DNA of 32,863 nucleotides, taken from a virus. Its lineage: Duplodnaviria; Heunggongvirae; Uroviricota; Caudoviricetes. This document shows, one piece after another, positions 412 to 21,604 of the stretch. The translations under genes were made by a program, and so were the position numbers. The stretch lies in the IMG/VR virus record IMGVR_UViG_2700989508_000029; one strand, given 5' to 3'. The notes under the pieces were generated by a model. It was not told the DNA's origin. It saw only the letters and a list, made by a program, of their open reading frames with translations, and ran no database searches. How positions within the stretch are numbered: position 1 is the first letter of the stretch; the number at the start of each line of letters is the position of its first letter.

Positions 412-535
412 ATAGCTGCACCTGCACTGCCTGATGTCAGAACAGTATTTTGATGAATTGCCAAGGTTACAATGGCACAAATGCGGCACAGGAGGAAACG
501 TGGTGTATTTAAATATGGGGTAACTCTTTGATTTT

Positions 536-556
536 AATGGTGCCGATAATAGGAGT
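536..556. repeat. Distal att site: 21-bp exact copy of the thrW 3' end (ptwF-like pseudo-tRNA fragment)
   Basis: AATGGTGCCGATAATAGGAGT is identical to 31418-31438, which lies inside thrW. The two copies are in the same orientation. Confidence 0.9.
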
Positions 557-611
557 AAAACACTCGATTAATCTCGTGTTAATGCCATCACCTACGACCA
601 TTACTAATTGA

Positions 612-1976: not shown

Positions 1977-1983
1977 ACGCAAT

Positions 1984-2015
1984 AAAGAGGCTTCAACATA
2001 ATTGGTAGCCTCTTT
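1984..2015. terminator. Bidirectional rho-independent terminator between convergent int and tail genes
   Basis: AAAGAGGCT-N14-AGCCTCTTT hairpin with T-rich sequence on both strands. Confidence 0.6.
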
Positions 2016-2056
2016 TATAATTACATCGTTACAGAGCGTTTTAGAGGCATTTACGG

Positions 2057-2770: not shown

Positions 2771-2804
2771 AATAATAATTTTCCTTGTAATGTTATGGCG
2801 GGAA

Positions 2805-4634: not shown

Positions 4635-4648
4635 TTAAAATCCCCTTA

Positions 4649-4852
4649 TTAATCATTTTTATCACCTTCTTTACTTAAGAAATGGTGTAGAGCCTGATCA
4701 ATACTCTCGTTTAATCTGAACATACGGGCTTTTACTCCTTCATATGGAACATCTAGGAGAGAACAGAGATATTTCAGATTTAACAAGCCTCTAGAATCAT
4801 TAGCATCTAAATGTACGTGTACACCATTTTTTGATTTCAAAATCACTTCCAT
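4649..4852 (-). CDS. Hypothetical small protein (67 aa) between capsid and tape-measure genes
   Basis: ORF with an SD (gagaggtgatt) upstream, in an operon with the TMP-like gene. No recognisable motif. Confidence 0.45.
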   Translation of the reverse strand: MEVILKSKNGVHVHLDANDSRGLLNLKYLCSLLDVPYEGVKARMFRLNESIDQALHHFLSKEGDKND

Positions 4853-4874
4853 ATTTTAATCACCTCTCAAAATT

Positions 4875-4918
4875 TAAAAAAATAAAAAAAAAGGCGAAGC
4901 GTGAATACACGCCACGCC
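4875..4918 (-). terminator. Strong rho-independent terminator/attenuator immediately after the major capsid gene
   Basis: On the minus strand, a GGCGTGGCGTG-TATT-CACGCTTCGCC hairpin is followed by a T9AT7 run. Confidence 0.65.
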
Positions 4919-4936
4919 TCTATTACACGTTAAATA

Positions 4937-5965
4937 TTATTTAACAGTGATTTGAACGGAGAAGCCTACACCGTGGTTTACAACCATCTGGCTATTCTCT
5001 GTAACAACGTTAACAGCATCACCACGAGAAGATTCATAGCTATAGCTATACACCTCAGCAGGAGCGGCATTGATCAGTTCAAAAGTGCTGGAAGCAGCCC
5101 CGTAGATGTTCTGATATACATTAGAGCCTTTAGCAAACTTCGGAATCGCAACCGCATCAGAAGTCATATGTGCAAGGTGTAGCGGATCTACCAGTTTAAC
5201 AACATCAATGTTAGTTCCTGGGATAGTGAACGCTGTCACCCCTGGCAGCAGGTCACGACGCTGATACACAACGTTCCCCTCTTCCAGTGGGCTTACATAC
5301 TGGAATGCGTTTGCCATACCAGCAGAGAATCGAATTGCGGAGAAGGCTTCAGGTTTACAGAAAACAACAATACGCTCTACAGCAGACGCCTGGCTTTGTG
5401 CTTTCTCGATAATGTCAGTAGCAATCTGATCAAATTCTTTAAAAATCTTCGTGGTGTCAGTGCTGGAAGCGTTCACAGTGGCTTTCATAGCTGATACGTT
5501 AAACAGCTTGCCCCATTCGATAAGAACATCATCAGTTTTCGGTGTATAAGTTTTGCCCGAGAACAAAGAAGCAGCCAATACGCTCTCTTTTGTACGCTGA
5601 TACGCTACGTGGTGTTTAGCGATATATTCCGCATAAATATCAGTGAGTGTTTCCTGGAAATCAGTGCCAGGTTTACGTTTGCCTTGAACATCAGAAGGAC
5701 GGATCACATCTTCACGCAGGAAGTAAGGGATCTCGATCAGCCATTCTTTACCTTGTTCTCGCTTAGTAACATTGTGTTCAGAACTAAAACGGCTTGTCTC
5801 TTTGTTAAAGAGAGATTCGTTGCTTTCGACAAGCTGGGAAACAGCTACTTTATGAGATGTAACCCCTACAGAATCCGTAAAATCAAGAGTAGAGAGCAGG
5901 AAGTTACGCGTGCTGTGTGTCTGGAACAGAGGGATCAAATCAACGTAATCATTGCCTAGAATCAT
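4937..5965 (-). CDS. Major capsid protein, lambda gpE-like (Phage_cap_E-type), 342 aa
   Basis: Its length is close to lambda gpE (341 aa). The family-like segment is IPYFLREDVIRPSDVQGKRKPGT...YQRTKESVLAASLFSGK...LIEWGKLF. It is directly preceded by a decoration-like gene, as in the lambda D-E order. Confidence 0.65.
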   Translation of the reverse strand: MILGNDYVDLIPLFQTHSTRNFLLSTLDFTDSVGVTSHKVAVSQLVESNESLFNKETSRFSSEHNVTKREQGKEWLIEIPYFLREDVIRPSDVQGKRKPGTDFQETLTDIYAEYIAKHHVAYQRTKESVLAASLFSGKTYTPKTDDVLIEWGKLFNVSAMKATVNASSTDTTKIFKEFDQIATDIIEKAQSQASAVERIVVFCKPEAFSAIRFSAGMANAFQYVSPLEEGNVVYQRRDLLPGVTAFTIPGTNIDVVKLVDPLHLAHMTSDAVAIPKFAKGSNVYQNIYGAASSTFELINAAPAEVYSYSYESSRGDAVNVVTENSQMVVNHGVGFSVQITVK

Positions 5966-5983
5966 TTATTATTATTCCTTTTA

Positions 5984-6346
5984 TTAAGAAGTGAAAACAG
6001 AATGGAACCCTTCAAGCTGGAAGCCTTTTTTAATTAATGCTGTTTTTGCTGCTTCACTTACAGCATTCAGCGCATCAGCTTTGATGCATACAAGCCCAGC
6101 ATTGCTACGTAAAACATCTACAGGTTTGTTTTCTCCAGCCGTTACAAATTCACTCATAACAACATAGATATCATCTCCTGATACATATTTAGCGCCAGTG
6201 CTGGTGATCAAGTCGCCGCATTCAACATCAGCAGGAAGAGAAGCAAAAACCTTGCTTTCTACAGAGGCAAACGGATCAGTACAATAACTTACAATATCTG
6301 TGAAAGTCTTTCGAACTGGAAACAGAGTGTCTAAATCAATAATCAT
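5984..6346 (-). CDS. Head decoration protein-like (lambda gpD-position), 120 aa
   Basis: The size and the position immediately upstream of the E-like capsid gene fit. Its ATG overlaps the stop of the upstream ORF (ATGA). Confidence 0.45.
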   Translation of the reverse strand: MIIDLDTLFPVRKTFTDIVSYCTDPFASVESKVFASLPADVECGDLITSTGAKYVSGDDIYVVMSEFVTAGENKPVDVLRSNAGLVCIKADALNAVSEAAKTALIKKGFQLEGFHSVFTS

Positions 6347-6555
6347 TTAGTAATCTCCTTAGCTTTTAATTTGATTAATTCATTAAGGGAAGGTGTAGAC
6401 GGAGAAGAAGGAGAAAAATATTTTTCAACACATCTTTCTACTTCTTCTACAGAACACCCAGCGTATTTAGCTACCATTTCGGTAATTTGTGGATTTATTT
6501 TCAGCATTTCATCTTTATACTTGATGATTTGCTCTTTATCATTTAAGAACAACAT
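6343..6555 (-). CDS. Hypothetical protein (70 aa), first gene of the structural operon
   Basis: Translationally coupled (ATGA) to the decoration-like gene. No motif recognised. Confidence 0.45.
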   Translation of the reverse strand: MLFLNDKEQIIKYKDEMLKINPQITEMVAKYAGCSVEEVERCVEKYFSPSSPSTPSLNELIKLKAKEITK

Positions 6556-6617
6556 TTATATAAACCTTGTTACCTTGTTTAAAGTAAGAAATACAACTTT
6601 TAAGTTGCATAACGGGC

Positions 6618-6649
6618 AAAATAAAAGGCAGCATTTAGAGCCGCCTTTT
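6618..6649 (-). terminator. Rho-independent terminator separating the early and structural operons
   Basis: On the minus strand, the GGCGGC-UCUAAAU-GCUGCC hairpin has a G-U pair that is valid only on that strand, followed by UUUUAUUUU. Confidence 0.55.
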
Positions 6650-6678
6650 ATTAACTTGTACCTATGTAATTACCCTAT

Positions 6679-6708
6679 GTTATGCATACTCCAAGATGTA
6701 TGCATAAC
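6679..6708. promoter_or_regulatory. Operator-like perfect inverted repeat GTTATGCATA-N10-TATGCATAAC upstream of the structural operon
   Basis: 10-bp perfect arms. A third half-site, TTGCATAAC, lies at 6605-6613, nearer the operon start. Confidence 0.45.
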
Positions 6709-6904
6709 AAAGGAAAAAAGAGGTAATAATGACACAGTATTTACTTAAGGAGGAGAAGCGGGGAGCGGAGATTTTACTCCCCTTTAACGACAAGAAGAAT
6801 TTTTAATATCGAACCAATAAAGGAAAAATAATCACCCCATATAATTATATTAACATATAATAGATGGAATGTCAAGATATTTTACAACTTTTTTGTTGCT
6901 TTTT

Positions 6905-7267
6905 TTATTCTTCTGTGATAGTGCCTAAGCGTTGAGCGAGTTCGACAAGTCCATCTCCCACATAGCGAACATCAGATTCGATATCTTCTATCCAGTTTGA
7001 TAGCTCCCATATCTGATCGGCTGTCAGGTATGCGTTTTCGCGCTTACAGAGCATCTCTACACGCTTAGAGAGGTGCTCAAAGGCATTCACAGCTAAATCC
7101 CAGTGTTTAAACGCCTCATTTAGTGACGCTGGTGTGTTTTCTTTGTATGCTTCAAGTTCAGCGCGGTTTAAAGGCAGAAGGTAATCATCCTCATAATAAT
7201 TAATTAGTGAGTAAATTGTGTCATACGTGTTTTTGTTCATATTAAAAGTCTCCATAGTGATCAGCAT
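6905..7267 (-). CDS. Hypothetical protein (up to 120 aa; likely start at 7240 or 7255)
   Basis: The ORF is adjacent to the upstream gene's stop at 7242-7244. A GGAGA SD precedes the ATG at 7240. Confidence 0.45.
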   Translation of the reverse strand: MLITMETFNMNKNTYDTIYSLINYYEDDYLLPLNRAELEAYKENTPASLNEAFKHWDLAVNAFEHLSKRVEMLCKRENAYLTADQIWELSNWIEDIESDVRYVGDGLVELAQRLGTITEE

Positions 7268-7652
7268 TATCTAGAATCTGGAAGTCTGGAACTAAGTTAT
7301 TTAGGCCATTTGTGGCGAGATAACCAACGTAGTGGTTATAGTCTTCAAATCCTAAAATCTGGTATTTGCGTAAATCAGAGCTATCAACGATATACTCTTT
7401 TCTTTTTCTAGGTTTCCAGAATACGCCAGGTGTTGAAGATAAGATTTCTTGTAAGGCGTTAAATTCATCTCCGCAAGGCACAGAGGGAGAATGTTCTATG
7501 ATCTCTGTTTTCCATTCGCCAGGGGCGCTATTTTGCTTGGTGAGCGTAACTAGCTCTTTAAAGTCTTTGCGTCTTAGAATAGATTTAGGTTTACTTAGAA
7601 GAGAAGCTGAATCCCCGATTTTCTTAACAACGTTGTTTTTTCTTTTTGCCAT
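7242..7652 (-). CDS. Hypothetical protein with basic N-terminus (136 aa)
   Basis: ATG at 7652 with an AAGGAAA SD. The N-terminus is MAKRKNNVVKK. No family recognised. Confidence 0.45.
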   Translation of the reverse strand: MAKRKNNVVKKIGDSASLLSKPKSILRRKDFKELVTLTKQNSAPGEWKTEIIEHSPSVPCGDEFNALQEILSSTPGVFWKPRKRKEYIVDSSDLRKYQILGFEDYNHYVGYLATNGLNNLVPDFQILDNADHYGDF

Positions 7653-7784
7653 TATTTACTTTTCCTTTTCTTTTAAAGGAAAACACCCCGAAGTATGTTT
7701 CTAACGTGAGAAAGAACAATAACCAATACATAGCTACTATCATAATAATGTTTTCCTTTTATATTTTAATTACATAGAGAGATT

Positions 7785-8063
7785 TTAGAGAGTGGAATAG
7801 ATGAATTCTATTTCTTTATCTAGTCTTTTGAGATTGAATGTAGAGAAAGATAATTCTTTAATTTCTATAACACCGAAGTTTGATAGCTGTTTCAGCCAGA
7901 ATTTTAAACCATCTTCAGAGCACCCTGCTCGATGTAACACATCGCTATATTTTAGCGGTGTTGGCTTTCCTTTATAGAGGTAAGCAAGTGTTTCGTAGAT
8001 GCGTTTTCCTGTGTCGTTACACTGAATTCTGTCTACTTGATTTTTTACTAAATATTGAATCAT
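7785..8063 (-). CDS. Small putative winged-helix DNA-binding protein (92 aa)
   Basis: A strong SD (AAGGAGGG) precedes the ATG at 8063. The sequence looks wHTH-like. Confidence 0.45.
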   Translation of the reverse strand: MIQYLVKNQVDRIQCNDTGKRIYETLAYLYKGKPTPLKYSDVLHRAGCSEDGLKFWLKQLSNFGVIEIKELSFSTFNLKRLDKEIEFIYSTL

Positions 8064-8074
8064 AACCCTCCTTA

Positions 8075-8767
8075 TTAAAATGGAATATCAAAGTCTTCGT
8101 ATACTTTGGGATGTTTCTTAGCAAAATATGCCTCAATACCATTTGGTAGCTTTAACCTGTGCTTATAGGCTAACGATGTTGCAAATTCTATAAATGATGC
8201 TCCTCCTGTTCTAGTATTCTTCTGCTTGATAATAAGAGAGGCAAAATTCTTTAACACATCCTCCTCATTATCATTAGCTACCTTTTCACTTGATGAAACA
8301 GGTGTTTCTTCCGTCTCCCACGGTAAAGGCGTATCCCAATCATCATCAAGAACATCAAAAGAAGGCTGTTTATGGCCTTTAGGTTGTTCCTGTGCTTCTT
8401 CTGCCTCAGAAAGATCAGAGAGTGATGATTCTCCTGGGGGAGTAATATGTGCATCTGTGAGAGGGAGAGCATTGTAAATCAAAGATGAAATATACGGATC
8501 AGGATGTGGGGATGTTTCTAATAATCCCATCTCTTTAAGATCGTTTATCTTACGTTTAATTGTTGACGCTGAAGACTTAAAAATCTTAGCTAATGTTTCG
8601 TGACTTTCATAACAATTAAGGTTGTTTTCCTGATAACTAAGGAATCGAAAATAAAGCACAATATGTAATAGATCTAAATCTTTTCCTTGAGGGAATTTAT
8701 CAGAATAAATCTTTGATACATTATCAAACGTGTCATAGTGTTTTGTAAAAGTTAGTTGGTTAATCAT
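8075..8767 (-). CDS. HTH replication-initiator-like protein ending in an SSB C-terminal-tip-like motif (230 aa from MINQL)
   Basis: AAGGAG SD 7 nt before the ATG at 8767. The N-terminal wHTH-like segment is ESHETLAKIFKSSASTIKRKINDLKEMGLLE. An acidic linker follows, and the C-terminus YEDFDIPF resembles the E. coli SSB tip DFDDDIPF. Confidence 0.5.
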   Translation of the reverse strand: MINQLTFTKHYDTFDNVSKIYSDKFPQGKDLDLLHIVLYFRFLSYQENNLNCYESHETLAKIFKSSASTIKRKINDLKEMGLLETSPHPDPYISSLIYNALPLTDAHITPPGESSLSDLSEAEEAQEQPKGHKQPSFDVLDDDWDTPLPWETEETPVSSSEKVANDNEEDVLKNFASLIIKQKNTRTGGASFIEFATSLAYKHRLKLPNGIEAYFAKKHPKVYEDFDIPF

Positions 8768-8820
8768 TAAAAATCTCCTTGATGTAATCACGCTCTATGG
8801 CGCTACTATGGTGATAAAAA

Positions 8821-8991
8821 TCACTTGCTTTTATTTGAGAGTGTTTCAGCCTCTCTTTTCAACATATCAAGAATGTAATCTGTGACAGTGATCCGTCTAC
8901 TTCTGGCTTCTTTAAATAACACCTGAAATACTTCATCAGGAATATGAAAGCAAGTGCGTGGTTGTCTTTTCTTTTCTGTAGTTTCGCTCAT
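8821..8991 (-). CDS. Ribbon-helix-helix (CopG/Arc-like) protein (56 aa from MSETT)
   Basis: AAGGAG SD before the ATG at 8991. RTCFHIPDEVFQVLFKEARSRRITVTDYILDML fits a beta-alpha-alpha RHH pattern. Confidence 0.5.
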   Translation of the reverse strand: MSETTEKKRQPRTCFHIPDEVFQVLFKEARSRRITVTDYILDMLKREAETLSNKSK

Positions 8992-9010
8992 AGTTTTCTC
9001 CTTCTCTTCT

Positions 9011-9199
9011 TTACTCTGTTTCAGATTCTTTTTCATTTTTTCTTAGTTCATCAATAATCTTGAGTGCTTCATTGAAGCAAGCTGCTCGCTCTGGATAACC
9101 TCGACTCCTTGCCATATTACGATTCATTACTACTTGGTGGCGTGTAAGCTCACCTTTTTTAAATGCCTGGACGACGTGCTCAGGTGTAAACCATTTCAT
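9011..9199 (-). CDS. Hypothetical small protein (62 aa), first gene of the early operon
   Basis: AAGGAG SD before the ATG at 9199. Confidence 0.45.
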   Translation of the reverse strand: MKWFTPEHVVQAFKKGELTRHQVVMNRNMARSRGYPERAACFNEALKIIDELRKNEKESETE

Positions 9200-9310
9200 A
9201 AAAAACTCCTTATTCAGTTAAAAGAAAAAACACCTTGCAAGCCTGACGGCTTCAAAGTGCATTGATTTTGATTATTTAGAGAAGAATGTTTTTCTGTCCC
9301 TCTAATACCT

Positions 9311-9339
9311 ATTATTACATATAAAGAAACATTTGTCAA
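9311..9339 (-). promoter_or_regulatory. Candidate sigma70 early promoter of the AT-rich element
   Basis: On the minus strand, TTGACA-N16/17-TAATAAT lies about 110 nt upstream of the first early ORF. Confidence 0.4.
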
Positions 9340-9855
9340 TACCTTTTCATAAAAAATCTGATCTTTTTCATGCACTTACATTTTTTCTTAGCAATTCGTG
9401 CTCTCCTATGTAGTGCTATTCTTCCTTATTGTCTAAAACGCTCTAAAACGCGTTCTAACGAGATTTTGATAAAAGCAATACATTCCCTTATCTAATGGCT
9501 GTTTAGCTCGCCAGAGGCTTATTTAAGTGGCTTATTTTGTATTTGTTAGATGATGATAGATATAAAACAGAGAGTCACTTTATAAAACGCTCTGTAAAGC
9601 CCTGTAGTGAGTTTATTATATGTAGGCAATGCGTTTCCATTCCCTACCCTGCTTAATGTTGTTAGAGAAGCATTTAGACCCCTTATTTTTAATTACCTAA
9701 AGTATCCTCTATACATCTCTGTTATGAAACACCTCTGAATCCTTCATAAAACACATTATGACGCAAAGAACACTTTTCTAAGGTGATTCCCTTCCTGAAT
9801 GCTGTTTCTTGCGTCAGAGAGCTACACAGAGCTTATAAAGATATTATTAATAATA

Positions 9856-9917
9856 AAGTAGATAAAGTAAGTAAGATAAGTAAGTAAGATAACTAAGATA
9901 GATAAGATTAATAAGAT
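9856..9917. repeat. Degenerate TAAGATA/TAAGTAAG tandem microrepeat
   Basis: gataaagtaagtaagataagtaagtaagataactaagatagataagattaataagat. Confidence 0.6.
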
Positions 9918-9961
9918 CAGAATTCTCTTTCGGTGTCGCCTCTGGCTTTTCCACCGAAAAC

Positions 9962-10228
9962 AATTACACGACTACAGAATGTAGGAAGTGAAATTGTATT
10001 GAGGCTTAGTGAAATTACACGAGGAAAGCAGAGTGTAATTGAGCTTTAGCCGCTCTCTTCGAGTAATTACACAACTACAGAGAATAACGAGAGTTATTAA
10101 ATGTAGGAAGTGGAATTAAGAGGTAGAGAGTTACACATAAGCAATCAGTATGATTGGTTAGGTGATTACTCTTCTGCGCACAGCGCAATAGTATTTCTTC
10201 GTGGGCGTTACCGCCACGATAGTTACAC
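9962..10228. repeat. Cluster of (A)ATTACAC sites (about 6 copies, one inverted)
   Basis: AATTACAC occurs at 9962, 10013 and 10065, and GTGTAATT (inverted) at 10033. TTACAC/GTTACAC occur at 10131 and 10222. The larger unit AATTACACnACTACAGA...TGTAGGAAGTGnAATT is repeated at 9962-9994 and 10065-10118. Confidence 0.6.
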
Positions 10229-10350
10229 GAAGAAAGTAACGCTTTGCTTTCGGTGTGAGCGGAACGGGCCAGCCACGAAGCCCGAAAGGTAGCGGAGTAA
10301 GGCTGCTTGCCAGAGAGTGAAGCTAACGCCGGAAGGCAAAAGATCATATA

Positions 10351-10501
10351 TATATAGTATAAAGAATATTATTATGATCTAATTAATAATCTAATATAGT
10401 TTTATTAATAGTCTTATTGTAGTTCACAGTGACCTACCCCCTAGCTCACTATGACCTACCCCCTAGGTCACAGTGACCTATATAGTATAAAGAATATTAT
10501 T
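10351..10501. repeat. 23-bp perfect direct repeats flanking TGACCTACCCCCTAG repeats and a 15-bp palindrome
   Basis: TATATAGTATAAAGAATATTATT occurs at 10351-10373 and 10479-10501. TGACCTACCCCCTAG occurs at 10430-10444 and 10452-10466. The palindrome AGGTCAC-A-GTGACCT lies at 10465-10479. Confidence 0.7.
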
Positions 10502-10526
10502 TATATTATTTAATTATAGTATTGGT

Positions 10527-10626
10527 GGAACTCATTTCCTAGGTAGGTAGGAACTCATTTCCTAAGTAGGTAGGAAACCACTTCCTAGGTTACTTCCTAA
10601 ATAGATCGGAAATCATTTCCTAGGTG
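10527..10626. repeat. Iteron array: 4-5 copies of GGAAnnCAyTTCCTArGT (internal GGAA-N5-TTCC dyad), ~23-bp period
   Basis: Copies start at 10527, 10550, 10573 and 10608, with a partial copy at about 10593. Confidence 0.7.
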
Positions 10627-10641
10627 TTATTTATTCTTATC

Positions 10642-10700
10642 GGGTATCAGTTTTGATAGGGGTATCAGACTTGATAGGGGTAACAGAATTCTGTGGGGGT
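10642..10700. repeat. Iteron array: 3 copies of GGGGTAwCAGnnTTGATA, 18-bp period
   Basis: Copies at 10642-10658, 10659-10676 and 10677-10694, then a GGGGGTAG partial copy. Confidence 0.65.
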
Positions 10701-10866
10701 AGTTCACTATGACCTACCCCTAGCTCACTGTGAGCTACCGTTACATTCAATCATCTTCCGATGTGTAATATCGTTACATTCAATAATTAGTCTATGTAAC
10801 ATATCGTTACTACCAACTTTCTTACAAAGAGCATTTCAGATAGCTGAATGTAACCTCTCGTTACAT
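10701..10866. repeat. Third TGACCTACCCCTAG copy, AGCTCAC-T-GTGAGCT palindrome, and CGTTACAT/ATGTAAC sites
   Basis: TGACCTACCCCTAG is at 10710-10723 and the palindrome at 10722-10736. CGTTACATTCAAT occurs at 10739 and 10772. ATGTAAC occurs at 10794 and 10848, and CGTTAC(AT) at 10805 and 10859. Confidence 0.6.
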
Positions 10867-11669
10867 CCATTTGTCACATAGCACTCTGTGTAATGCCTTT
10901 CTATGTGTGTGCCATAATCCCCCCTATATTCCCTGTGTAAATCATAGAATATCCCTAACTTATTCCTGTGTAATTCCATACTAAAAATTCAATGAAAAAA
11001 GTAGCTTAAAAGTTCAATTCTTACTTTCTTCACTTTTACATCACTTTCGCAAATCCTTGTGTAATGCGGCTTACAGAGCACCATCAGAAATTGTTGGCTA
11101 AAAATTGTTCTGCTTGTTTCTTAATGAGTTTTCTTGTTTGTGCAAATTTTAAAATTTATTTTGTTTTTACAGCCTTATTTCGTGTAATGCGTGGCATAGC
11201 AAGCCCTTTTCTTGTGTTGTCAAGACATTTGGCAACGTTCAAACATCTGTTTAGAAATGCCAAATTGTTGATCTAACAAATAAACCTGTATAAACAGAAC
11301 ACCATTTAATCTATTCCCCTGTGTAATCCACTACATCACACGATAAAAACAAAAAACTTTTAATTATATTTCATAGCACACAAAAGTCAACAGAAGCCCT
11401 CTCGTGCTCCTACGTAAAAAATCCATCACTTTTCCCCTGATACATCAACTCAAGGCGTTCTATGTGTTCCTTAGTGCATATTACGATTATTATGTTAAAT
11501 GGATTTTGGCCTATATTTTGACCTGCACCCGCATAAACACTGGTTTCATCGCTTACAGCCCTTGTGAGACGTGGTGCTGTTTCTAGCATCTGATCCGACA
11601 TAAAACCGATCATTCTCGTGTTTAGTGAAAGTTTAGTGAGAGACATTACAGAAAGGCTTTCTGTGTAAT
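10762..11669. repeat. Dispersed (C)TGTGTAAT sites (at least 8 copies), inverse orientation of the 9962-10228 ATTACAC cluster
   Basis: Copies at 10762, 10886, 10933, 10966, 11058, 11182, 11319 and 11661. One reversed copy (ACTACACAGG, next to GTTACAT) lies at about 12331-12347. Confidence 0.6.
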
Positions 11670-12137
11670 GATTTAATAGGTAAAAACGATGTTGATTACG
11701 CAAGAAAATTCCTTGCTGATATTTGGGGATTCTGGATTTTCCAGATCGGGGGGCGCTGAAAATCGCGTTAAGCACTTCTCGCAATCTAGCCATAAGGGAA
11801 GGGATATAGGTATTTAGATGTATTTATAGCTAATTTATAGCTATTTATTTTTTATTTACCTTTATTAAAAATAACCTTATAAATCAATAAGATACATAAT
11901 TATCTGTTTATATTCTAATCAATTAAATCAAGTTTAATACCCTTAAATAACCTGAAAATAGCCTTAAATACCCCAATAATTAATTTTAAGGTTTTCCGTG
12001 TTCTCTTCTGCATTATGAAAATGCAAAATAAGGCACAAAACAAGCTCACATACGCATTAAACACACATCACCTATACATCCCTATGCCAAGCAATGAAAA
12101 CAGCGTTAGAATGCGTCCTGTTGCGTTCTGGAGATTT

Positions 12138-12296
12138 TCAGAAATCCTCTCTAAGCCATTTCAACTCACTAAGGAGTTTTCTTTCTTCGTTCTCTCGTTG
12201 CTTTCGCTCTAGCCAGGCTTTTCCCTCTGGCGTAGACAGGAACTTACGAGCGTGAATCTTGCGGTTATTACGTTTGATAGCTGCAATGTTTTTCAT
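12138..12296 (-). CDS. Unlisted small basic ORF (52 aa, MKNIAAIKRNNRKIHARKFLSTPEGKAWLERKQRENEERKLLSELKWLREDF)
   Basis: I translated this by hand. It has an ATG with an AGAGG SD about 8 nt upstream, and GTTACAT / CTGTGTAGT-type sites lie just upstream. It is below the 60-aa threshold of the ORF track. Confidence 0.35.
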   Translation of the reverse strand: MKNIAAIKRNNRKIHARKFLSTPEGKAWLERKQRENEERKLLSELKWLREDF

Positions 12297-12479
12297 CGTG
12301 TGCCTCTGTATTCATATGAAAATTAACAAGTTACATACTACACAGGGAGACTACGCATAAAACACAATACAAGTAAAGATACATTTTCAAGACAATAGGA
12401 GCCATAAAGCGCCTTTGATGGTTATACCAAAAAATAAGCGCCGTAGGCGTATCCACTAAAAAGGGCTTTTTCACAAAAG

Positions 12480-12842
12480 CTATGAAGTCTTAGCAGTTCT
12501 TCTCTTATCAGGCACCCGTTGTACTCCGGTGGACGAAACCGTGCTAGAGCTTGATTCTTTCCCGATCAAGTTAGGTTTTGAAGAGGTGGGCTTTAATCCA
12601 CTATGCACTTAAAACTCTTCCCATCATTTAGCCTGTTTATCCTCTGCAACGTCTCACGACGTGTAGCATCATTGGACACCGCGCCAGGTGTGGAACATCT
12701 TGCTAAGAGTTTTGGTAGAAGGTTTAGAGACGGTGGCACGTCTTCCAGCTTCAAAGGAACTTGTTACGAGGTTGAGCCTGGGAACTACTCGCCCATACGT
12801 GTTACACTACCAAAGCCCATAACAACGTATAGGCGTTTGTAA
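12480..12842 (+). ncRNA. Candidate structured non-coding RNA (hairpin cluster) next to the inter-element att
   Basis: A locally GC-enriched block in AT-rich DNA holds seven consecutive hairpins: 12548-12572, 12581-12620, 12649-12662, 12676-12691, 12727-12744, 12745-12781 and 12790-12836. Three G-T appositions (12549/12571, 12727/12744, 12750/12776) are wobble-compatible only on the + strand. Confidence 0.35.
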
Positions 12843-12898
12843 GTGATAACAGAAGATACAATTTCTTAGAGAAGTTAAGCTAAGTTATTGATTTTCTT

Positions 12899-12916
12899 AA
12901 TGGTGCGATAATAGGA
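12899..12916. repeat. Degenerate internal att copy (junction between the two elements)
   Basis: AATGGTG-CGATAATAGGA differs from AATGGTGCCGATAATAGGA by a 1-nt deletion. Its flanks (TTGATTTT.. / ..AAAACA) also resemble those of the 536-556 copy. Confidence 0.6.
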
Positions 12917-12978
12917 ACAAAACAAACAATAAAAATACATTGATATATAAAGACATTTTCCCATTACATCTTTGTAGA

Positions 12979-12998
12979 TACCCCCAAAAGTACCCCCA
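12979..12998. promoter_or_regulatory. Putative integrase arm-type sites (TACCCCCAAAAGTACCCCCA), distal arm of the P4-like element
   Basis: 19/20 identical to 31287-31306 beside the integrase gene, in the same orientation, with the same 12-bp spacing of the TACCCCCA octamers. Confidence 0.5.
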
Positions 12999-13257
12999 AA
13001 CAATTTTCTCTCACCACCATTTGCACATAAAGCAGCCATGTACAACTGGTAGTTGAACAGGCGGGTAGACCGTTCGTTCAGTAAATACCTGATATTTCCG
13101 CCAACGAGAAATTGCGTTGGCTGGCAGAGTGCAAATTTGCACGATAACCTAACCCATTGATTCTTTCGAAAACCCGCAATGCAGGAAGCCGGATAACACC
13201 ATTTTATAGCTCCGATCCCTTCAAAGTGAGGGGTAATTTGCCAAAACAGAGAGAGCA

Positions 13258-13545
13258 TTACTGTCTCTGGCAATCTTTATCGCGATAACGCCTGAAGTAC
13301 CCTCTCGCTTCCTCATCCATACCAAGAGCCGAATGAGTCCGCTTAACTGCCTGTCTTAAATCTCCGAATCTGTCTGTAGTTGCTGGTGGGCGTGCCGCCT
13401 TACGGATACATTCAGAGCGTCTGTTTGCTGCATGTTCACGTTCTTTATCGCCATCTGCCAGCATCATGACTTCTGCCCATCGTGCGGCAGCTCTCCGGTA
13501 TAGCCCTTTTGACTCCAGCTCTTCAGCTTTCCTGTCCTTTATCAT
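13258..13545 (-). CDS. PerC/Pch-family transcriptional regulator-like protein (95 aa)
   Basis: AEELESKGLYRRAAARWAEVM...REHAANRRSEC matches the PerC-family N-terminal pattern I recall (..LE..G.YRRAA.RW..V..). Confidence 0.65.
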   Translation of the reverse strand: MIKDRKAEELESKGLYRRAAARWAEVMMLADGDKEREHAANRRSECIRKAARPPATTDRFGDLRQAVKRTHSALGMDEEARGYFRRYRDKDCQRQ

Positions 13546-13578
13546 TTCTGCCTCTCAGATTATATAGATAAGCAAAAA

Positions 13579-13705
13579 GGTGTTGGTTCAGTTGGTTCAG
13601 TTGGTTCAATTTGTAAAGAGCGTTGTTTTTATTGTGTTTTTTCTAAAATATTGAACCAACATCAACTCATTTTGAACCAACACAGCCCAGCTCTGAACCA
13701 ACAAC
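13579..13705. repeat. Iteron module A (ori/crr-like): 3 tandem GTTGGTTCA, an AT-rich spacer, then 3 TGAACCAAC
   Basis: GTTGGTTCA is at 13582, 13591 and 13600. TGAACCAAC is at 13652, 13673 and 13694. The module is an inverted homolog of 22036-22153. Confidence 0.7.
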
Positions 13706-13755
13706 ACAGCGATAGATTTGCGATTGGTCCGTTATTTTCTGGCTGATATTTGAGC

Positions 13756-13790
13756 GTATAACAGTGTTATACAGTGGTATACTGTATGGA
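13756..13790. promoter_or_regulatory. Operator-like overlapping dyads (GTATAAC-AGT-GTTATAC; ATACAGT-GGTAT-ACTGTAT) upstream of the RHH gene
   Basis: Perfect 7-bp arms at 13756-13772 and 13769-13787. Confidence 0.4.
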
Positions 13791-13804
13791 TATTACTCAC
13801 TGAT

Positions 13805-14245
13805 ATGGTCTTTGCAATGAGCAAATCTAATCTGATCGCGTTCCGCATCCCATCTGAATTGCAGGATGAGTTTAATCGGTCTGTTCTCGCTTCTGGAGGG
13901 GATAAAACCTCCTGGCTTGTTGATGCGATTCGCATGAAGCTGGGACAGCCGGAAAAGTCTATTGATTCACGAATGCTTGGGCTGGTGGAGCGCATGGAAA
14001 AAGCCGCAGCATCGCTTATTGCCGGAAAGCCGAACATCCCACCAAAGCCATATAACGAAACGGCAGTTATAAAGATCATTGCCGATACCATCCGACAGGG
14101 ATTTGATAATGGGCGTGTGATAGCTGAACGGCTCAATGAAGCAGGCTACCAAACAAAAGCTGGTAAAGCGTGGGATAAAGACATTTACAGCGCGTGGAAG
14201 CGTCAGGATAACAATATTAAAAGAATCAATACGCTGCTTCAGTAA
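13805..14245 (+). CDS. RHH-domain DNA-binding protein with a C-terminal recombinase-like helical domain (146 aa; possibly starts at 13817)
   Basis: NLIAFRIPSELQDEFNRSVLASGGDKTSWLVDAIRMKL fits an RHH pattern. The C-terminal AERLNEAGYQTKAGKAWDKDIY resembles the recombinase-domain LN..G..T..G..W motif. Confidence 0.5.
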   Translation: MVFAMSKSNLIAFRIPSELQDEFNRSVLASGGDKTSWLVDAIRMKLGQPEKSIDSRMLGLVERMEKAAASLIAGKPNIPPKPYNETAVIKIIADTIRQGFDNGRVIAERLNEAGYQTKAGKAWDKDIYSAWKRQDNNIKRINTLLQ

Positions 14246-14274
14246 TTGATCAGTGTATAAATGATATTTATCGC

Positions 14275-15252
14275 TCAATCGCTCCCTTTCCGCCCTTCAG
14301 CTACAGGGTCGTTGTCGGCGATAACAAAACCTAAGTCCTGAGAGAATCTCTCTCGTGGGAATCCTTTAGCAGGTAAACCCATTGAATCATATCCACATCC
14401 GGGAACATTTGGTTTAGAGTCAATAAGGTCTGCAATTTGCCGAAGCCATGTTGATCCCGGACCAAGTCGTTTAACTAAGTACCAGATAATACAGATCGCG
14501 CTAAAAATCCTCTCGCAACTCTCTGGATGGAGATTAAGTCCGTCAAAGTATTCATTATCCGGTACTGGAACTCGGGGATGCTTTCTATTCCATATTCTGG
14601 AATGGTGAGCGCAACGATTCCTTATGAGATTAAGGCACTTCAACCATTTTGCAAATGTCTGCTTATTATCAATGCCAAAACGACGTATAATTTTCCCCTG
14701 CATATGACCATTAAGCATCGCATAATATTTAGACATCTGACCAAAATCCCAGGTCTCCACCGCCACCCAAAATGGAATCTCCTTGCCTTGGCTTCGATGC
14801 CATTCAATACAGTCATCTCTGCTTTCGTCTAATTTTACTTTTTGCTTATACACCCAATGCTCGAAGGCAGATGAGAATTTTGGATTAATGTATTTTGATG
14901 ACATGTAGGCAAGTGGATCATTGCGACCAACCTCATGCGCGATGACTGAACGAACATGAATCTCTATTCTTTCGATAGCATCAATCATCAAAAGACGCAG
15001 TTTTTTGTCAAAAAGATATAGATCGTACGTCTTCTCGAAACTGGTACCAGTAAGAAATCGGTCTGTTCTGTACGAAAGACCTTTATCTGTTGTCGCAATA
15101 ATTCTTGATGGGTACCAAAAACCTGACAATCGATAATATCCAACCTGCGACAGCTTACGTATCGCACGATTTCGATCATTGATAATCATGCCACGTTCAA
15201 GTAGCAATCCTAGCAATTCGTGATAGTCCTTATGAGGCTTTGCGGCAATCAT
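14275..15252 (-). CDS. Abi_2 family (AbiD/AbiF-like) abortive-infection protein
   Basis: Family hallmarks are present: YYRLSGFWYP, ERIEIHVRSVIAHE and LNLIRNRCAHHSRIWNR. The likely start is MIAAKPHKDY at 15252; the track ORF extends to 15297. Confidence 0.85.
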   Translation of the reverse strand: MIAAKPHKDYHELLGLLLERGMIINDRNRAIRKLSQVGYYRLSGFWYPSRIIATTDKGLSYRTDRFLTGTSFEKTYDLYLFDKKLRLLMIDAIERIEIHVRSVIAHEVGRNDPLAYMSSKYINPKFSSAFEHWVYKQKVKLDESRDDCIEWHRSQGKEIPFWVAVETWDFGQMSKYYAMLNGHMQGKIIRRFGIDNKQTFAKWLKCLNLIRNRCAHHSRIWNRKHPRVPVPDNEYFDGLNLHPESCERIFSAICIIWYLVKRLGPGSTWLRQIADLIDSKPNVPGCGYDSMGLPAKGFPRERFSQDLGFVIADNDPVAEGRKGSD

Positions 15253-15422
15253 AGTGGCGAAACAAAAGATAATAAAAGGCCCGACCGTGAAACTCACATG
15301 CCTGAAATCGGCGGCGGAGAAACAGAGGATCGGGCTCGGTTGCCTGTAACTCTATCCGAAGTTATCCACATGTCAATGCACAGTTACTTAGGAAACTAAC
15401 ATAGGTACTATCATCACTCACG

Positions 15423-15445
15423 AAAAACCACTATATGTGGTTTTT
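15423..15445. terminator. Bidirectional hairpin terminator AAAAACCAC-TATAT-GTGGTTTTT
   Basis: 9-bp perfect stem with built-in A/T tracts on both sides. Confidence 0.5.
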
Positions 15446-15725
15446 ATTCATATCGTTATCCACTACAGGCTGTGTCAATAACTTTTACCTATTAATTGGG
15501 TAATTTCTACATTTTCCTATGCTGGCTAGTTTCTCTACTGAAAAGTTGGCACTCCTTAATCGCTTTTCGGTTAATACTATCGGTCTTCATATTGCCAGCA
15601 GCATACGCCATCCGATAATTTCGATGCTACGCGCGCGTACTTGTCGCAAAATATCAGGCAAAGGCCAGATTCAGAACGTCGTGATAACCACCAGCACAAC
15701 ATGAGATGTCATGTAACACGATTTA

Positions 15726-16104
15726 TCACATCAGATACATGTGATTGGTGTACCCGCATAAAACATCGTCATAGCGCGTCCTGTGCGCATATACGCCGAT
15801 AATCAACACATCACCACCACTCTGTCTCGTGTAGAGAACAGTTTCATGGTATCCCCCGCCATCGTGTGCGTACTGGTCGGACGTAGTTGCAAAATTTTTG
15901 CAACTGATACCCCTCGCGCGCGTACTGGTCACGAAATTGGTGTTTTGCTGTGGCAGTGATATCAGAAAAATCTTCCTGTTTCACATAAAGCGGATATGCG
16001 CGTACTGTAACGGCCCCATCAACGGGGATCGGATTTGAAATCCCGACCCAAGCTATGTACCAAATGCCATGTCTTGGATATATGATGATTGCCATTCTAA
16101 ACAA
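15726..16104 (-). pseudogene. Frameshifted small gene, possibly a RelE/ParE-like toxin remnant
   Basis: Two overlapping minus-strand ORFs in different frames (15844-16104 and 15726-15932). The C-terminal piece ...YHETVLYTRQSGGDVLIIGVYAHRTRY resembles the RelE/ParE C-terminal beta-strand/His-Arg pattern. The family assignment is weak. Confidence 0.3.
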
Positions 16105-16121
16105 CGCTAAAGGGGGTTGGT

Positions 16122-16736
16122 GTGAGCAGAAAAGATACTAAAGAATTGCTAACTATCTGCATGGTGTACTTTTCAATTTATTTTTGTGCATACATGATAG
16201 TCCCAGATGAGTTTGAACATGGCAGTATTATTTATTCCATAACATTCTATTTTTTAGAGCTAACACCAATTTTGGCTATCCTTTTGGCAATACATATTTA
16301 TTTTTCCTTAAAAAAAGAATCGACTAATTGGGAGAAGGTATGGAGAGACAGAGGATTTCTAACATCACCTAAAGATGATGCATATGAGAGTGATTTTTCT
16401 GACTTTATAACAAACTACTACTCCAGCGAACAATTCAAAAATAGACTGTCTGATGTTTGGGAAACAGCAATGTATTCCATAGGGATTATATTATTGATAC
16501 TTACTGGTATTGCTCAATATGTTTTTAACATTGACTTATCATTAAATCCTGAAAATTTAATATCGCCATTGATTTTTGGTGAGATATTGATCTTCTCATT
16601 CGGAATTTTCTTGAGTGTTGTTCTCTGCTCATTATGCAAACTACTGACTAACAGGTATCCAGGTGAAGCAAGGAGAGCAAGAAAGGCAAATCCATATTAT
16701 CTTTTATTTCCTAATGGAGACAGCAGAGATATCTAA
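16122..16736 (+). CDS. AT-rich 4-TM membrane protein (204 aa) at the position SieA occupies in P22
   Basis: GTG start with a strong SD (AAGGGGG). There are four hydrophobic helices. The gene converges on the end of the gp16-like gene. Confidence 0.6.
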   Translation: MSRKDTKELLTICMVYFSIYFCAYMIVPDEFEHGSIIYSITFYFLELTPILAILLAIHIYFSLKKESTNWEKVWRDRGFLTSPKDDAYESDFSDFITNYYSSEQFKNRLSDVWETAMYSIGIILLILTGIAQYVFNIDLSLNPENLISPLIFGEILIFSFGIFLSVVLCSLCKLLTNRYPGEARRARKANPYYLLFPNGDSRDI

Positions 16737-16754
16737 GCCATCCATGGCTACCAG

Positions 16755-18860
16755 TTATTGAGCTTCTTTTTGTGATGCCTGTGCGACTCTGGTGAGCGAT
16801 TGTGTGACCGTACTGATCGCTCTGTCATATGCTGTGCTACCTTTTGGCGTATTTGCCAAACGTAACAAGGCATTTCGTATAACAGGGCTTTCGTATGCCT
16901 TCGCGGCTCCGCCTACGGCACCAGCAGCAGGAACAACAAACGCAGCCGTTTTTAGCATCCCCGCTAATACTGCTGCGTTTATGATGCCACCACCAACTAA
17001 CAATCCATAAAGCTGCTGACCATTTAAGTTTTGAACGTTCGCTTTTGCCGCGTGTCTTGTATCGTTGAGGTATTTAATAACGCCGTCCAGTTCCTTTCCA
17101 TGTACGCCTTTAAAGAAAGTTGCTGATTGCTTCCTGTTCCGGTGTAACGCATTAATAAACTTCTCAACACTGATATTTCCAGACGGATCAGTCGCCTTAT
17201 CTACAGCATTCTGAACTATGGCTGCTCGTGCGTTTTGCCTACCATTGTCATCCAGAAGCCTGTAAAGCTGAGAACGTTCTGATGGGCTTTGGCTAAAAAC
17301 GAGTTTTGTTACATCCTCAGGCGTGGCCTTGCCGCTGGCTATTGCCTTTTGAACGCGCGTTCTTCCCATCATGTCATTGAATTTAGACCATGAGCGATCA
17401 ACCCTTGCCATATTAATGGCTTCGTCTGCTCCAAGATTTTTGGCTACGGCTTTTTTCATATCCGCCGTATATGCCTTGTAGATAATATCGCTGGCTTTCT
17501 GGAGCGTATCTTTATCAACAGTGTCAGATGACGCCATAAACCGCTTTCGAAGATCGGTTCTGTTTTCCCTCGCCAGACGCAGGTCATTTGGTCCGCTGGT
17601 GATATCGTCTTTAAATTGCTGCAAGACTTTTACCGCGGCTCTATCCTGAGATTTACCCGGGCGGCTTAACACAGCAATCTGATTGTCGATAGCTTTTACC
17701 GTGTTTGAGAGATCGACAGGGGTATCCCCCATAGCGTCAATTATGCGGTTATATCGCTTTCCTGCTGCCTCAATGAATTTTTGTTGCCCTTTAGTCGCAG
17801 ATTCATAAAGCTGTTTATCAGAAATGCCACCCAGACCATCGCTAAATGTTCTGACTAAATTTTCTCGTGCTTGTTGTTGATTCAGCCGATTCTTACCGGT
17901 TCCAAAAAAAGGAACTCTTTCGCCTAATGTCTGAGCCTGACTCTGCATAAAGGTTTTATCTTTCAGCATGTCACTGGTCATTAACGGCAGATTTCTTTCC
18001 GATGCAAAGTCGACAGCAGCCTTTGCTTCAGGCGACATATCACCACGAACAGCCCTCGAAACCGCACTCGCTGTATTTTCCAGCCCCTTACCAATACCAC
18101 CAATGCCAGCAGAAATTACCGTTTGTAACGGATCAATATCTTCTCCACCAGCAAGGCTAGTGGCTCCCTGTAGTGCTAAATCTGTAGCTGCTGATTTTCC
18201 TATGGCACCAAGCACCGTTCCAGCCCTGCCCGCTGGTGTAAACGCCAGCGCATTAGCCAGAAACGATGCCACGTCTTGCGGCGATAAACCCGGCTTGTTC
18301 AGAGCATAATCACCGGATGGCAGGGAAACGATAGTGTTACCCTTCTCATCCTGCCTTAATTTCGCTCCCATGCTCTGAAGAATCTTTTCCTGAGATGCGT
18401 CAGAGCCGAAAAGTTGAGACCATCGAGCTTTTAGAGCATCCATGCTGAGTGAGGTTAACTCTGGGGCAAGGTCGACATTTTGCAGTCTCTCCATCTCTGG
18501 AGTCATTCGGCTTTCGCCTGTTATAGCATCGCGCATCGCAGCCCCAAGACTGGCTCCCTGTTCTGCTGAACGCTCAAGCCCCTCTCTTTGCTGAGTAGCT
18601 AACTTTGCATACCCTGACGCAAGAGAATTATCAGATGATGTATGTTGAATATTTTGAGTTGCTGATTGGGATCGGTCTATTTCATTCGTTGATGGTAGTG
18701 GATAGGCAGCATAAAAAGCCTGCTTAGCCTGCTCTACACTTTCTCCGGCTTGCGGGGCCACGACTTCATTGAAGTATTGCTCCTGAGCCTGCGCTTTTTG
18801 TTCTGGTGCTAACGCCTGATACTGTGGAGAGGCGATAACATCTTTCCATGCTTTAGCCAT
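16755..18860 (-). CDS. P22 gp16-like DNA ejection/transfer protein (701 aa)
   Basis: It is the third gene of a 225/473/701-aa series, which parallels P22 gp7/gp20/gp16 (about 229/471/609 aa) in order. Its ATG overlaps the upstream stop (TAATG). The N-terminus MAKAWKDVIASPQYQALAPEQKAQAQEQYF is typical of podovirus internal/ejection proteins. Confidence 0.6.
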   Translation of the reverse strand: MAKAWKDVIASPQYQALAPEQKAQAQEQYFNEVVAPQAGESVEQAKQAFYAAYPLPSTNEIDRSQSATQNIQHTSSDNSLASGYAKLATQQREGLERSAEQGASLGAAMRDAITGESRMTPEMERLQNVDLAPELTSLSMDALKARWSQLFGSDASQEKILQSMGAKLRQDEKGNTIVSLPSGDYALNKPGLSPQDVASFLANALAFTPAGRAGTVLGAIGKSAATDLALQGATSLAGGEDIDPLQTVISAGIGGIGKGLENTASAVSRAVRGDMSPEAKAAVDFASERNLPLMTSDMLKDKTFMQSQAQTLGERVPFFGTGKNRLNQQQARENLVRTFSDGLGGISDKQLYESATKGQQKFIEAAGKRYNRIIDAMGDTPVDLSNTVKAIDNQIAVLSRPGKSQDRAAVKVLQQFKDDITSGPNDLRLARENRTDLRKRFMASSDTVDKDTLQKASDIIYKAYTADMKKAVAKNLGADEAINMARVDRSWSKFNDMMGRTRVQKAIASGKATPEDVTKLVFSQSPSERSQLYRLLDDNGRQNARAAIVQNAVDKATDPSGNISVEKFINALHRNRKQSATFFKGVHGKELDGVIKYLNDTRHAAKANVQNLNGQQLYGLLVGGGIINAAVLAGMLKTAAFVVPAAGAVGGAAKAYESPVIRNALLRLANTPKGSTAYDRAISTVTQSLTRVAQASQKEAQ

Positions 18861-21413: not shown

Positions 21414-21429
21414 GCGATGCCATCCATTT

Positions 21430-21591: not shown

Positions 21592-21604
21592 AACGCCCCC
21601 TTAG

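Follow-up and report, generated by a model that had tools for sequence, protein, structure and literature searches.

Stacked iteron arrays in the non-coding region of an Escherichia coli phage satellite: a probable replication origin with interchangeable initiator specificities

Results

The stretch of DNA analysed here (the window; 32,863 nt, IMG/VR record IMGVR_UViG_2700989508_000029) is part of an Escherichia coli chromosome at the tRNA-Thr (CGT) gene, and the subject of this report is the long non-coding region of a 12.4-kb element integrated there, a satellite of phi92/phAPEC8-like virulent myoviruses (Stephanstirmvirinae). Since the 3′ end of the tRNA occurs three times, at the attL of the satellite, at a middle att (Table 1) and at 31418-31437, and since comparison with the genome of E. 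coli O26 RM8426 shows window 1-12916 joined directly to 31418-32863, the window was read as a tandem integration of the satellite (534-12916) and a second, 18.5-kb prophage (12917-31437). In RM8426 the satellite stands alone at tRNA-Thr, without a second prophage. An earlier reading of the window's letters (the original prediction) had placed the att between the elements near 11670; its actual site lies about 1.2 kb to the right of the end of the repeat region described there. The satellite codes for a tyrosine integrase, a Phage_cap_E capsid protein, a tape-measure-like protein and a Dit-like protein, the rest being small open reading frames (ORFs), and no portal, terminase, tube or sheath protein was recognised among the satellite ORFs scanned. 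The stretch from 9376 to 12916 is gene-poor, with a sole ORF of 52 codons (12138-12296). When 9400-12100 was used as a query, matches were obtained in 707 of 5,426 complete E. coli genomes, with at most four matching places per genome.

Seven repeat families had been claimed for this region, and all were found where they had been placed, far above chance. The TAAGATA-type microrepeat (family i, 9856-9917) was recovered by Tandem Repeats Finder (TRF) and differs in copy number among relatives. The window contains 27 copies of GTGTAA, the motif of families ii and vii, where 14.6 would be expected, and 14 of the copies lie in 9964-11668; TGTGTAAT occurs eight times against 1.04 expected, a count reached by no shuffle. 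The 23-bp perfect repeat of family iii is present at 10351 and 10479, TYACWRTGASCTA has seven matches against 0.03 expected, the family iv motif GGAANNCANTTCC recurs four times at 23-bp spacing against 0.04 expected, and family vi is present as described. Family v needed correction: two of its three claimed copies are 18-bp units, and the third (GGGGTAACAGAATTCTGTGGGGG, 10678-10700) is a single unit of a separate family, called type B below, which lies outside those originally recognised.

That the region lacks a convincing ORF was likewise borne out. Most relatives carry no RefSeq annotation here, and although codon-periodic conservation had been named as the pattern that would betray a hidden gene, the alignment of relatives instead showed frameshifting 1-2-nt indels throughout and no third-position bias among substitutions. 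ORFs of 60-127 aa do exist in the region, and the annotation program PGAP calls a coding sequence of about 95 aa within 11400-11700 in two relatives; none of the region's ORFs, however, has a Pfam or PHROG match, and in the largest (11410-11793, minus strand) nine of 13 substitutions are non-synonymous and only four fall at third positions. A hidden protein-coding gene, rejected on the indels and the missing third-position bias, is thus extremely improbable.

The gene at 8075-8767 encodes a 230-aa winged helix-turn-helix (wHTH) protein that resembles a lambda-O-like replication initiator. It matches PHROG replication-initiation, O-like and DnaD-like families (270, 428, 391 and 186; best E 2.9e-9) and scores 24.2 bits against Pfam HTH_36, just under the cutoff of 25. 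Among relatives the N-terminal ~100 residues fall into five types, A to E, with about 20% identity between types, and the C-terminal part falls into three types that reassort independently of the N domain. The window element is of type A. At least 120 matches were listed in a protein-database search with its initiator, all of them near-identical type-A proteins. The scan of the satellite ORFs revealed no second gene of initiator type, and a P-like loader gene was not found in the element either.

The region was read in 29 loci (identified below by L numbers), 14 from complete genomes and 15 from IMG/VR, which together present about 20 distinct configurations. In all 29 elements the array nearest to the A+T-rich leader was that of the element's own N-domain type (A in 11, B in 10, C in two, D in four and E in two). 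The paired iteron units are TAGCTCACAGTGACCTACCCCC for type A (family iii), TAACAGAATTCTGTGGGGGTGTC for type B (the AACAGAATTCTGT family), GGGTATCAGnnTTGATAG for type C (family v), TGTAAC-N5-GTTACA for type D (family vi) and GGAAnnCAyTTCCTAGGTAGGTA for type E (family iv). The E array is leader-proximal solely in the elements with a type-E N domain (L017 and L027) and the C array is so in the type-C elements L005 and L012; B units form five tandem, leader-proximal copies in all ten type-B elements, and D sites are the only array in the type-D elements L006, L014, L038 and L044. A 0.9-kb block between the gene and the origin exists in two unrelated versions, and since types A, B and D are each found with both versions and keep their arrays, linkage alone is unlikely to explain the pairing. 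The suggestion that the region holds binding sites for several helper or host proteins can therefore be retained in a narrower form: several proteins would be predicted to recognise the repeat families, not as a mix of unrelated factors, since the five families appear to be arrays of alternative specificity for alleles of one initiator domain.

The core of the iteron origin spans 10340-10870 and consists of an A+T-rich leader followed by the arrays. The hallmarks of an iteron origin are present: the element has its own initiator gene, as judged by sequence similarity, at least three direct repeats at about one to two helical turns, and an adjoining A+T-rich tract. The whole element is 62% A+T, against 86% in the first leader and 90% in the second, and an A+T-rich leader lies 5′ of the first array in every core that was read through. 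From their sequence and position the three type-A iterons at 10420-10482 are proposed to be the active array, cognate to the element's own initiator, and leader 1 is a candidate for the element at which the active origin unwinds. A copy of the 23-bp perfect repeat marks the start of each leader, and in L017 and L027, which are of type E, the leader-2 sequence lies immediately 5′ of the E array; leader 2 probably belonged to an older E-type core, the 23-bp repeat marking the duplication of the leader.

Comparison of the relatives showed both minimal and composite cores. Minimal cores have one array (AAAA in L019, DDD in L006), and in composite cores the cognate array is followed distally by others, which recur in the order E, C, B, A, D, usually with falling copy number. 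Thus C-type cores read CCC-B-A, B-type cores BBBBB-A(-D) and the E-type core of L027 EEEE-CC-B-A-D. The core of the window, AAA followed by EEEE-CC-B-AA-DD, is close to the L027 core preceded by a cassette of leader and AAA.

Domains of the satellite initiators were also found in phages. A tblastn search of 50,697 phage records with the window initiator gave one match, in Justusliebigvirus inny. The protein inny_184 (367 aa) joins a D domain (88% over 140 aa to the L006 initiator) and an E domain (82% to the L017 initiator) to an endonuclease domain, which matches PHROG 681 (E 3.9e-18) and scores 22.3 bits against Pfam MUG113, equal to the cutoff, and 15.5 bits against T5orf172, under the cutoff; tblastn relatives of the nuclease are annotated as GIY-YIG or homing endonucleases. 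Two further chimeras combine a C domain (88%), an E domain and the nuclease (muut_154) or a B domain (82%), an E domain and the nuclease (Phapecoctavirus Mt1B1_P17), and a BI-EHEC protein shares about 72% identity with inny_184. Close homologues of the chimeric nucleases were present in only four distinct phages of the collection, the type-A domain was found by tblastn in no phage among the 50,697 records, and a PDB sequence search with inny_184 found nothing. The proteins of inny, muut and Mt1B1_P17 appear to share the architecture of Odn, a nuclease of the Vibrio phage ICP1, and by analogy would target satellite origins. A role for helper proteins had been among the original suggestions; the form it takes, nucleases built from the DNA-binding domains of the satellite initiator, was unexpected. 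The sharing of domains independently supports the view that these domains recognise satellite DNA, that Stephanstirmvirinae are the helpers and that an arms race drives the diversity of the domains.

To the right of the repeat fields, the window carries a copy of the right boundary of the direct terminal repeat (DTR) of the helper (Table 1). Window 11745-11790 and phi92 318-363 are identical at 43 of 46 positions, with weaker similarity extending leftward to 11716, and the annotated phi92 DTR ends at 343, within the match, between CGCGTTA and AGCAC. The allele of L005 at this site matches phi92 285-332, and that shared by L013 and L016 matches Phapecoctavirus phages; the L013 allele is identical at 66 of 81 positions to BI-EHEC 277-357, which spans the DTR end at 328, the BI-EHEC record giving an end repeat of 328 bp. 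A copy of the left boundary of the helper DTR was not detectable, the best match scoring at the mean of shuffled controls. From these alignments the satellites appear to copy the repeat boundary of their helper in helper-matched variants, and the site would be recognised and cleaved by terminase. We are aware of no earlier description of a satellite that a DTR-type phage packages, nor of defined packaging signals for the phi92/phAPEC8-like group. The terminal repeat of phi92 (L002) also contains GATAATCATTATC-type sequences at 70-95 and 270-290, which we take to resemble Fur boxes. The proposal of a combined origin, partition and packaging region is accordingly upheld for a cis-acting non-coding region with a replication origin, and a packaging-type signal adjoins it outside the limits first drawn; no evidence of a partition function was found.

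The boundary copy and the initiator domains in Stephanstirmvirinae, together with the matches of two structural proteins, identify these phages as helpers. The best phage matches of the Dit-like protein are Justusliebigvirus proteins named 'tail tube initiator' (59-62% identity). The tape-measure-like protein matches almost solely Escherichia and Klebsiella phages of 145-151 kb, including named Justusliebigvirus and Phapecoctavirus records, and is 35% identical to Stephanstirmvirinae proteins. The capsid protein has only remote relatives (~25% identity), and a scan of genome contigs with it gave a single close relative. Possession of its own capsid, tape-measure and Dit proteins suggests that the satellite re-sizes the head and tail of a virulent 148-kb myovirus. 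The structural genes lie at 2057-5965 on the minus strand, and the tape-measure-like protein has 609 aa. A search of the literature yielded no work dealing with satellites of phages like phi92 or phAPEC8.

Either side of the core lie the GTGYAAT sites that the original prediction had listed as families ii and vii, with five GTGTAA on the minus strand and one on the plus strand to the left and eight on the plus strand to the right. The opposition of the two clusters is real, and the polarity, minus strand left of the core and plus strand right of it, is conserved in 11 of 11 relatives, so that the motif would always stand on the lagging-strand template of forks leaving the core. In a second lineage the T to C variant GTGCAAT occupies the aligned sites despite diverged flanks. 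Three roles considered for these repeats were not supported. As helper promoters or binding sites they were rejected, since Justusliebigvirus alia lacks the iteron motifs and its genome shows no excess of GTGTAAT; a DnaA box was rejected because the region has none; and a promoter scan did not support TGTGTAAT as sigma-70 promoters.

The ATTACAC sites of the left cluster, present as predicted, could be defined further as the 5′ halves of hairpin stems (AATTACAC...GTGnAATT), and the surrounding block of nested hairpins at 9920-10339 contains three hairpins with the common stem AATTACAC/GTGnAATT. Its fold z-score is -8.0 on the plus strand and -5.95 on the minus strand, and 1-nt indels among relatives mark it as non-coding. 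The second lineage has a different sequence here that is also over-structured (z -4.2/-5.2), with a common GCGCACAGCGC hairpin and GTGAGCGG island. In L013 and L007, 87 bp corresponding to window 9978-10065 are deleted; since the deletion falls between two AATTACAC-ACTACAGA hairpin units, such units seem to recombine with each other. The block may act as a single-strand priming signal or as a structured RNA, and the former fits as well as the latter because structure is found on both strands, beside the unwinding region.

The case for RNA was considered separately. In this alternative the hairpin block, and perhaps the GTGYAAT field, encode a structured or regulatory RNA, with AUUACAC/GUGUAAU pairing as in the P4 CI-RNA or P1 C4-type immunity. 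The fold is indeed very stable, the motifs to the left of the core are complementary to those on its right, and the same lineage-specific change appears on both sides (ATTGCAC with GTGCAAT); such a paired change, however, is equally expected of a protein site, excess structure is found on both strands in each lineage and favours neither strand consistently, and the promoter scan found no promoter for a rightward transcript. Known RNA families were rejected, as 9300-12950 has no Rfam match even at E ≤5, and the two sequence versions present among the 29 elements are too few for covariation. An RNA function of this kind is, on balance, quite unlikely.

Further to the right, a sigma-70-like promoter conserved in both lineages directs transcription leftward into the GTGYAAT field and the origin. 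The block in which it lies shows next to no variation in either lineage, lacks structure and has no convincing coding potential. In other variants this block is replaced by a gene for a small serine recombinase (~180 aa, resolvase/invertase type), which ends directly before the boundary copy. DNA inversion by the recombinase was rejected, since the orientation of the core is identical in all relatives and no recombinase remnant is present in the window.

Several further observations concern the surroundings of the region. A second variable slot, of about 110 bp in the window (12032-12143), is occupied by a gene for a 183-aa hypothetical protein in L006 (3513-4064), L012 (3893-4444), L015 (3378-3929) and L019 (4493-5044). 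In the early regulatory region of the satellite the motif CTAAAACGCTCTAAAACGC(A/G)TTCTAA occurs at 9433-9460, and it is also present in the unrelated IMG/VR contigs L021, L023/L035, L029, L036, L040 and L042; in L023 it directly follows the LexA-box-like CTGTATATTTATACAT. Window 9434-9497 weakly matches Justusliebigvirus alia 104624-104687 (73%, E ~1e-3). On the minus strand of the second prophage lie a C4 antisense RNA (79.5 bits) and an isrK RNA (67.1 bits), at 27354-27441 and 27504-27581, an RNA-based immunity/anti-repressor module.

Table 1. Features of the satellite non-coding region and associated genes. Positions refer to the window unless a locus is named.
Feature	Coordinates	Strand	Description and basis
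attL of satellite	534..553		copy of the tRNA-Thr 3′ end
Initiator gene	8075..8767	-	230 aa; type-A wHTH N domain and type-C1 C domain; PHROG, Pfam HTH_36
AT-rich microrepeat	9832..9919		TAAGATA/AAGT, 82% A+T; TRF; 13-nt unit indels among relatives
Hairpin block	9920..10339		G+C-richer, nested hairpins, inverted-repeat-rich
Left GTGYAAT cluster	9962..10228	-	five GTGTAAY sites (plus strand reads ATTACAC/GTTACAC); one plus-strand partner at 10033
AT-rich leader 1	10340..10419		86% A+T; contains first 23-bp repeat copy, 10351-10373
Type-A iterons	10420..10482	+	three TAGyTCACwrTGACCTACCCCC units, 22-bp period, at 10424/10446/10468
AT-rich leader 2	10479..10526		90% A+T; starts with second 23-bp repeat copy
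Type-E iterons	10527..10630	+	4-5 units GGAAnnCAyTTCCTAGGTAGGTA, 23-bp period (family iv)
Type-C iterons	10642..10677	+	two units GGGTATCAGnnTTGATAG, 18-bp period (family v)
Type-B iteron	10678..10700	+	one unit GGTAACAGAATTCTGTGGGGGTA
Further type-A iterons	10700..10739	+	two units, 21-bp spacing
Type-D sites	10739..10870		TGTAAC-N5-GTTACA dyads and CGTTACAT half-sites (family vi)
Right GTGYAAT field	10762..11669	+	eight GTGTAA(T/A) and one GTGCAAA (11140); consensus yyyTGTGYAAT
Invariant block	11345..11715		almost invariant in both lineages; fold z ~0; alignment, codon analysis
Sigma-70-like promoter	11363..11390	-	TTGACT-16-TATAAT, 11/12
Copy of right boundary of helper DTR	11716..11793	+	candidate pac-like terminase recognition/cleavage site
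Middle att	12897..12916		boundary of satellite and second prophage
Serine recombinase variants	L004 3316-3855; L005 4277-4816; L013 3427-3966; L016 3880-4431; L017 4566-5117; L020 3464-4003		
Nuclease chimeras	L045 1414-2517 (inny); L047 328-1326 (muut); L046 514-1500 (Mt1B1_P17)		

Discussion

The findings are best explained if the non-coding stretch is the cis-acting region of a satellite with an iteron origin, its arrays representing interchangeable initiator specificities and a packaging signal lying beside it, a reading that we consider likely. In the mechanism proposed, the type-A N-terminal wHTH domain would bind the three 22-bp type-A iterons and the bound initiator would open the adjoining leader 1, while the separate C-terminal domain presumably recruits a host or helper helicase. 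The E, C, B and D arrays would be the remains of earlier origin cores: an E-type core (leader-EEEE-CC-B-AA-DD) may have gained a recombined cassette of leader and AAA in front, duplicating 23 bp of the leader. Since helper nucleases with shared DNA-binding domains would cut the origin, they probably drive the swapping of matched modules of initiator domain and iterons. Packaging is probably directed by the boundary copy. In our reading the stacked arrays are layers, each left by one in a series of specificity switches.

Precedents for this kind of system exist in PLE/ICP1 and among the lambdoid phages. PLE, a Vibrio cholerae satellite of the virulent phage ICP1, has the initiator RepA and an iteron origin in a non-coding region (Barth et al. 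2021, PMC8263062), and the ICP1 nuclease Odn mimics PLE RepA and cuts the PLE iterons, which has been argued to select for replicon exchange (PMC8263062). In both systems the helper is a virulent myovirus, the origin has semi-palindromic iterons and lies in an extensive non-coding region, the N-terminal DNA-binding domain of the initiator is exchanged with the origin as one module, and a satellite DNA-binding domain is joined to a T5orf172-type nuclease in a helper protein. The PLE initiator, however, is of the RepA_N family, and PLE1, PLE4 and PLE5 share one replicon type (PMC8263062), whereas here the initiator matches HTH_36 and O-like profiles, five specificities exist against fewer PLE replicon types, one element combines stacked arrays of several specificities and each helper nuclease has two DNA-binding domains. 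Host and helper are unrelated to those of PLE, and the present system is known from sequence alone. A literature search found nothing on Odn-like nucleases outside Vibrio.

The lambdoid replication system provides a second parallel. The N domain of lambda O binds four 19-bp iterons beside an A+T-rich tract and its C domain binds P, and specificities differ among lambda, phi80, 82 and P22. Shared with O and ori-lambda are the two-domain initiator with its type-specific N domain, dyad iterons beside an A+T-rich tract, PHROG O-like matches and the reassortment of N and C domains; in contrast to lambda, where the origin lies inside the O gene, it is here 1.6 kb outside the gene, no P-like loader gene accompanies it and several arrays are stacked. 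In the rep-ori regions of Staphylococcus aureus pathogenicity islands (SaPIs) and phage-inducible chromosomal islands (PICIs), as in the iteron plasmids pSC101, R6K and RK2, an element-specific initiator binds direct repeats, with one iteron family per origin. These resemble the satellite origin in direct repeats at about two helical turns and an A+T-rich flank, and differ from it in that it has no SaPI-type primase-helicase fusion, no DnaA box and several iteron families. For packaging, P4 cos and SaPI pac/cos are copies of helper signals carried by satellites. The boundary copy is likewise a short copy of the helper's DNA-end-forming site, in variants matched to the helper lineage, and differs in that what it reproduces is the right-hand boundary of a DTR, with no left-boundary copy detected.

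Could the wHTH protein be a transcription factor and the arrays its operators for leftward or rightward transcription, the region being no origin at all? The RefSeq name of the protein is 'transcriptional regulator' or 'helix-turn-helix domain-containing protein', the dyad cores of the iterons resemble operators and the strong promoter at 11390-11363 faces the arrays. We nevertheless regard this as very unlikely, as the protein matches profiles of replication initiators and helicase loaders, the arrays consist of direct repeats with two-turn spacing beside tracts of 86-90% A+T, the swapping of two domains and the phage nuclease chimeras parallel PLE RepA and Odn, and the satellite ORFs scanned make no other replication gene or origin evident.

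A further alternative is that all of the arrays work today, forming a multi-key origin that is fired in trans by the initiators of sibling satellites, or that handcuffs or titrates those initiators (incompatibility), or that serves as a decoy for helper nucleases. The intact state of the E array (4-5 units at regular 23-bp spacing) favours it, as do the identical composite order in elements with different initiators (the window, L003, L011, L013 and L039), the up to four matching places per genome, and the E domain kept in all three phage nucleases, which suggests that E arrays are a common and persistent target. Most elements, on the other hand, have the cognate array and single leftover units only, and distal arrays show the graded loss of copies expected of decaying relics, so that present function of all arrays appears unlikely. 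Tentatively, and no more probably than the general case, such an origin might operate in a three-way conflict, its iterons of five alleles being fired by any co-resident sibling satellite and its non-cognate arrays acting as sacrificial or competitive sites for the dual-domain nucleases. If so, the multi-key origin, the polar GTGYAAT field and the hairpin block would form a new origin architecture shaped by conflict between satellites and between satellite and helper.

Several findings weigh against an iteron origin with interchangeable specificities and must be set beside the evidence for it. For a type-A element, keeping intact E (four-unit) and D arrays looks costly if the nucleases of helpers are directed at E, C, B and D iterons, and the extra arrays may therefore have a present function. 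The origin model leaves the GTGYAAT field, the hairpin block and the invariant block unexplained. The distance between gene and array is just 1.6-2.3 kb, so linkage adds to their co-occurrence, and the 29 loci may include repeated copies of a single element. For the protein, a PDB sequence search gave no solved-structure relative, a single-sequence structure prediction reached a pLDDT of only 42.6, and the PGAP label is 'transcriptional regulator'. Finally, no DnaA box (TTATNCACA, allowing up to one mismatch) was found in 9200-12000; DnaA boxes are present in many iteron origins, but not in all.

Five specificities stacked in one locus, dual-domain helper nucleases and a terminal-repeat boundary copy in a satellite family of E. 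coli are new, none having been found in the literature search. If the interpretation as a swappable iteron origin is correct, the PLE/ICP1 type of conflict, in which exchange of origin and initiator is set against a nuclease with a stolen domain, extends beyond Vibrio to E. coli, and the stacked arrays keep a visible history of specificity changes in one locus. The five pairs of domain and repeat would then make up a specificity code that can be read. For the phi92/phAPEC8-like group, the boundary copy shows where terminase probably recognises and cuts the DNA and, if it functions as proposed, would be the first known packaging signal for a satellite of a terminal-repeat phage. Since phi92/phAPEC8-like phages are used in therapy cocktails, the satellites carried by the bacteria and the nuclease content of the helpers may predict phage success.

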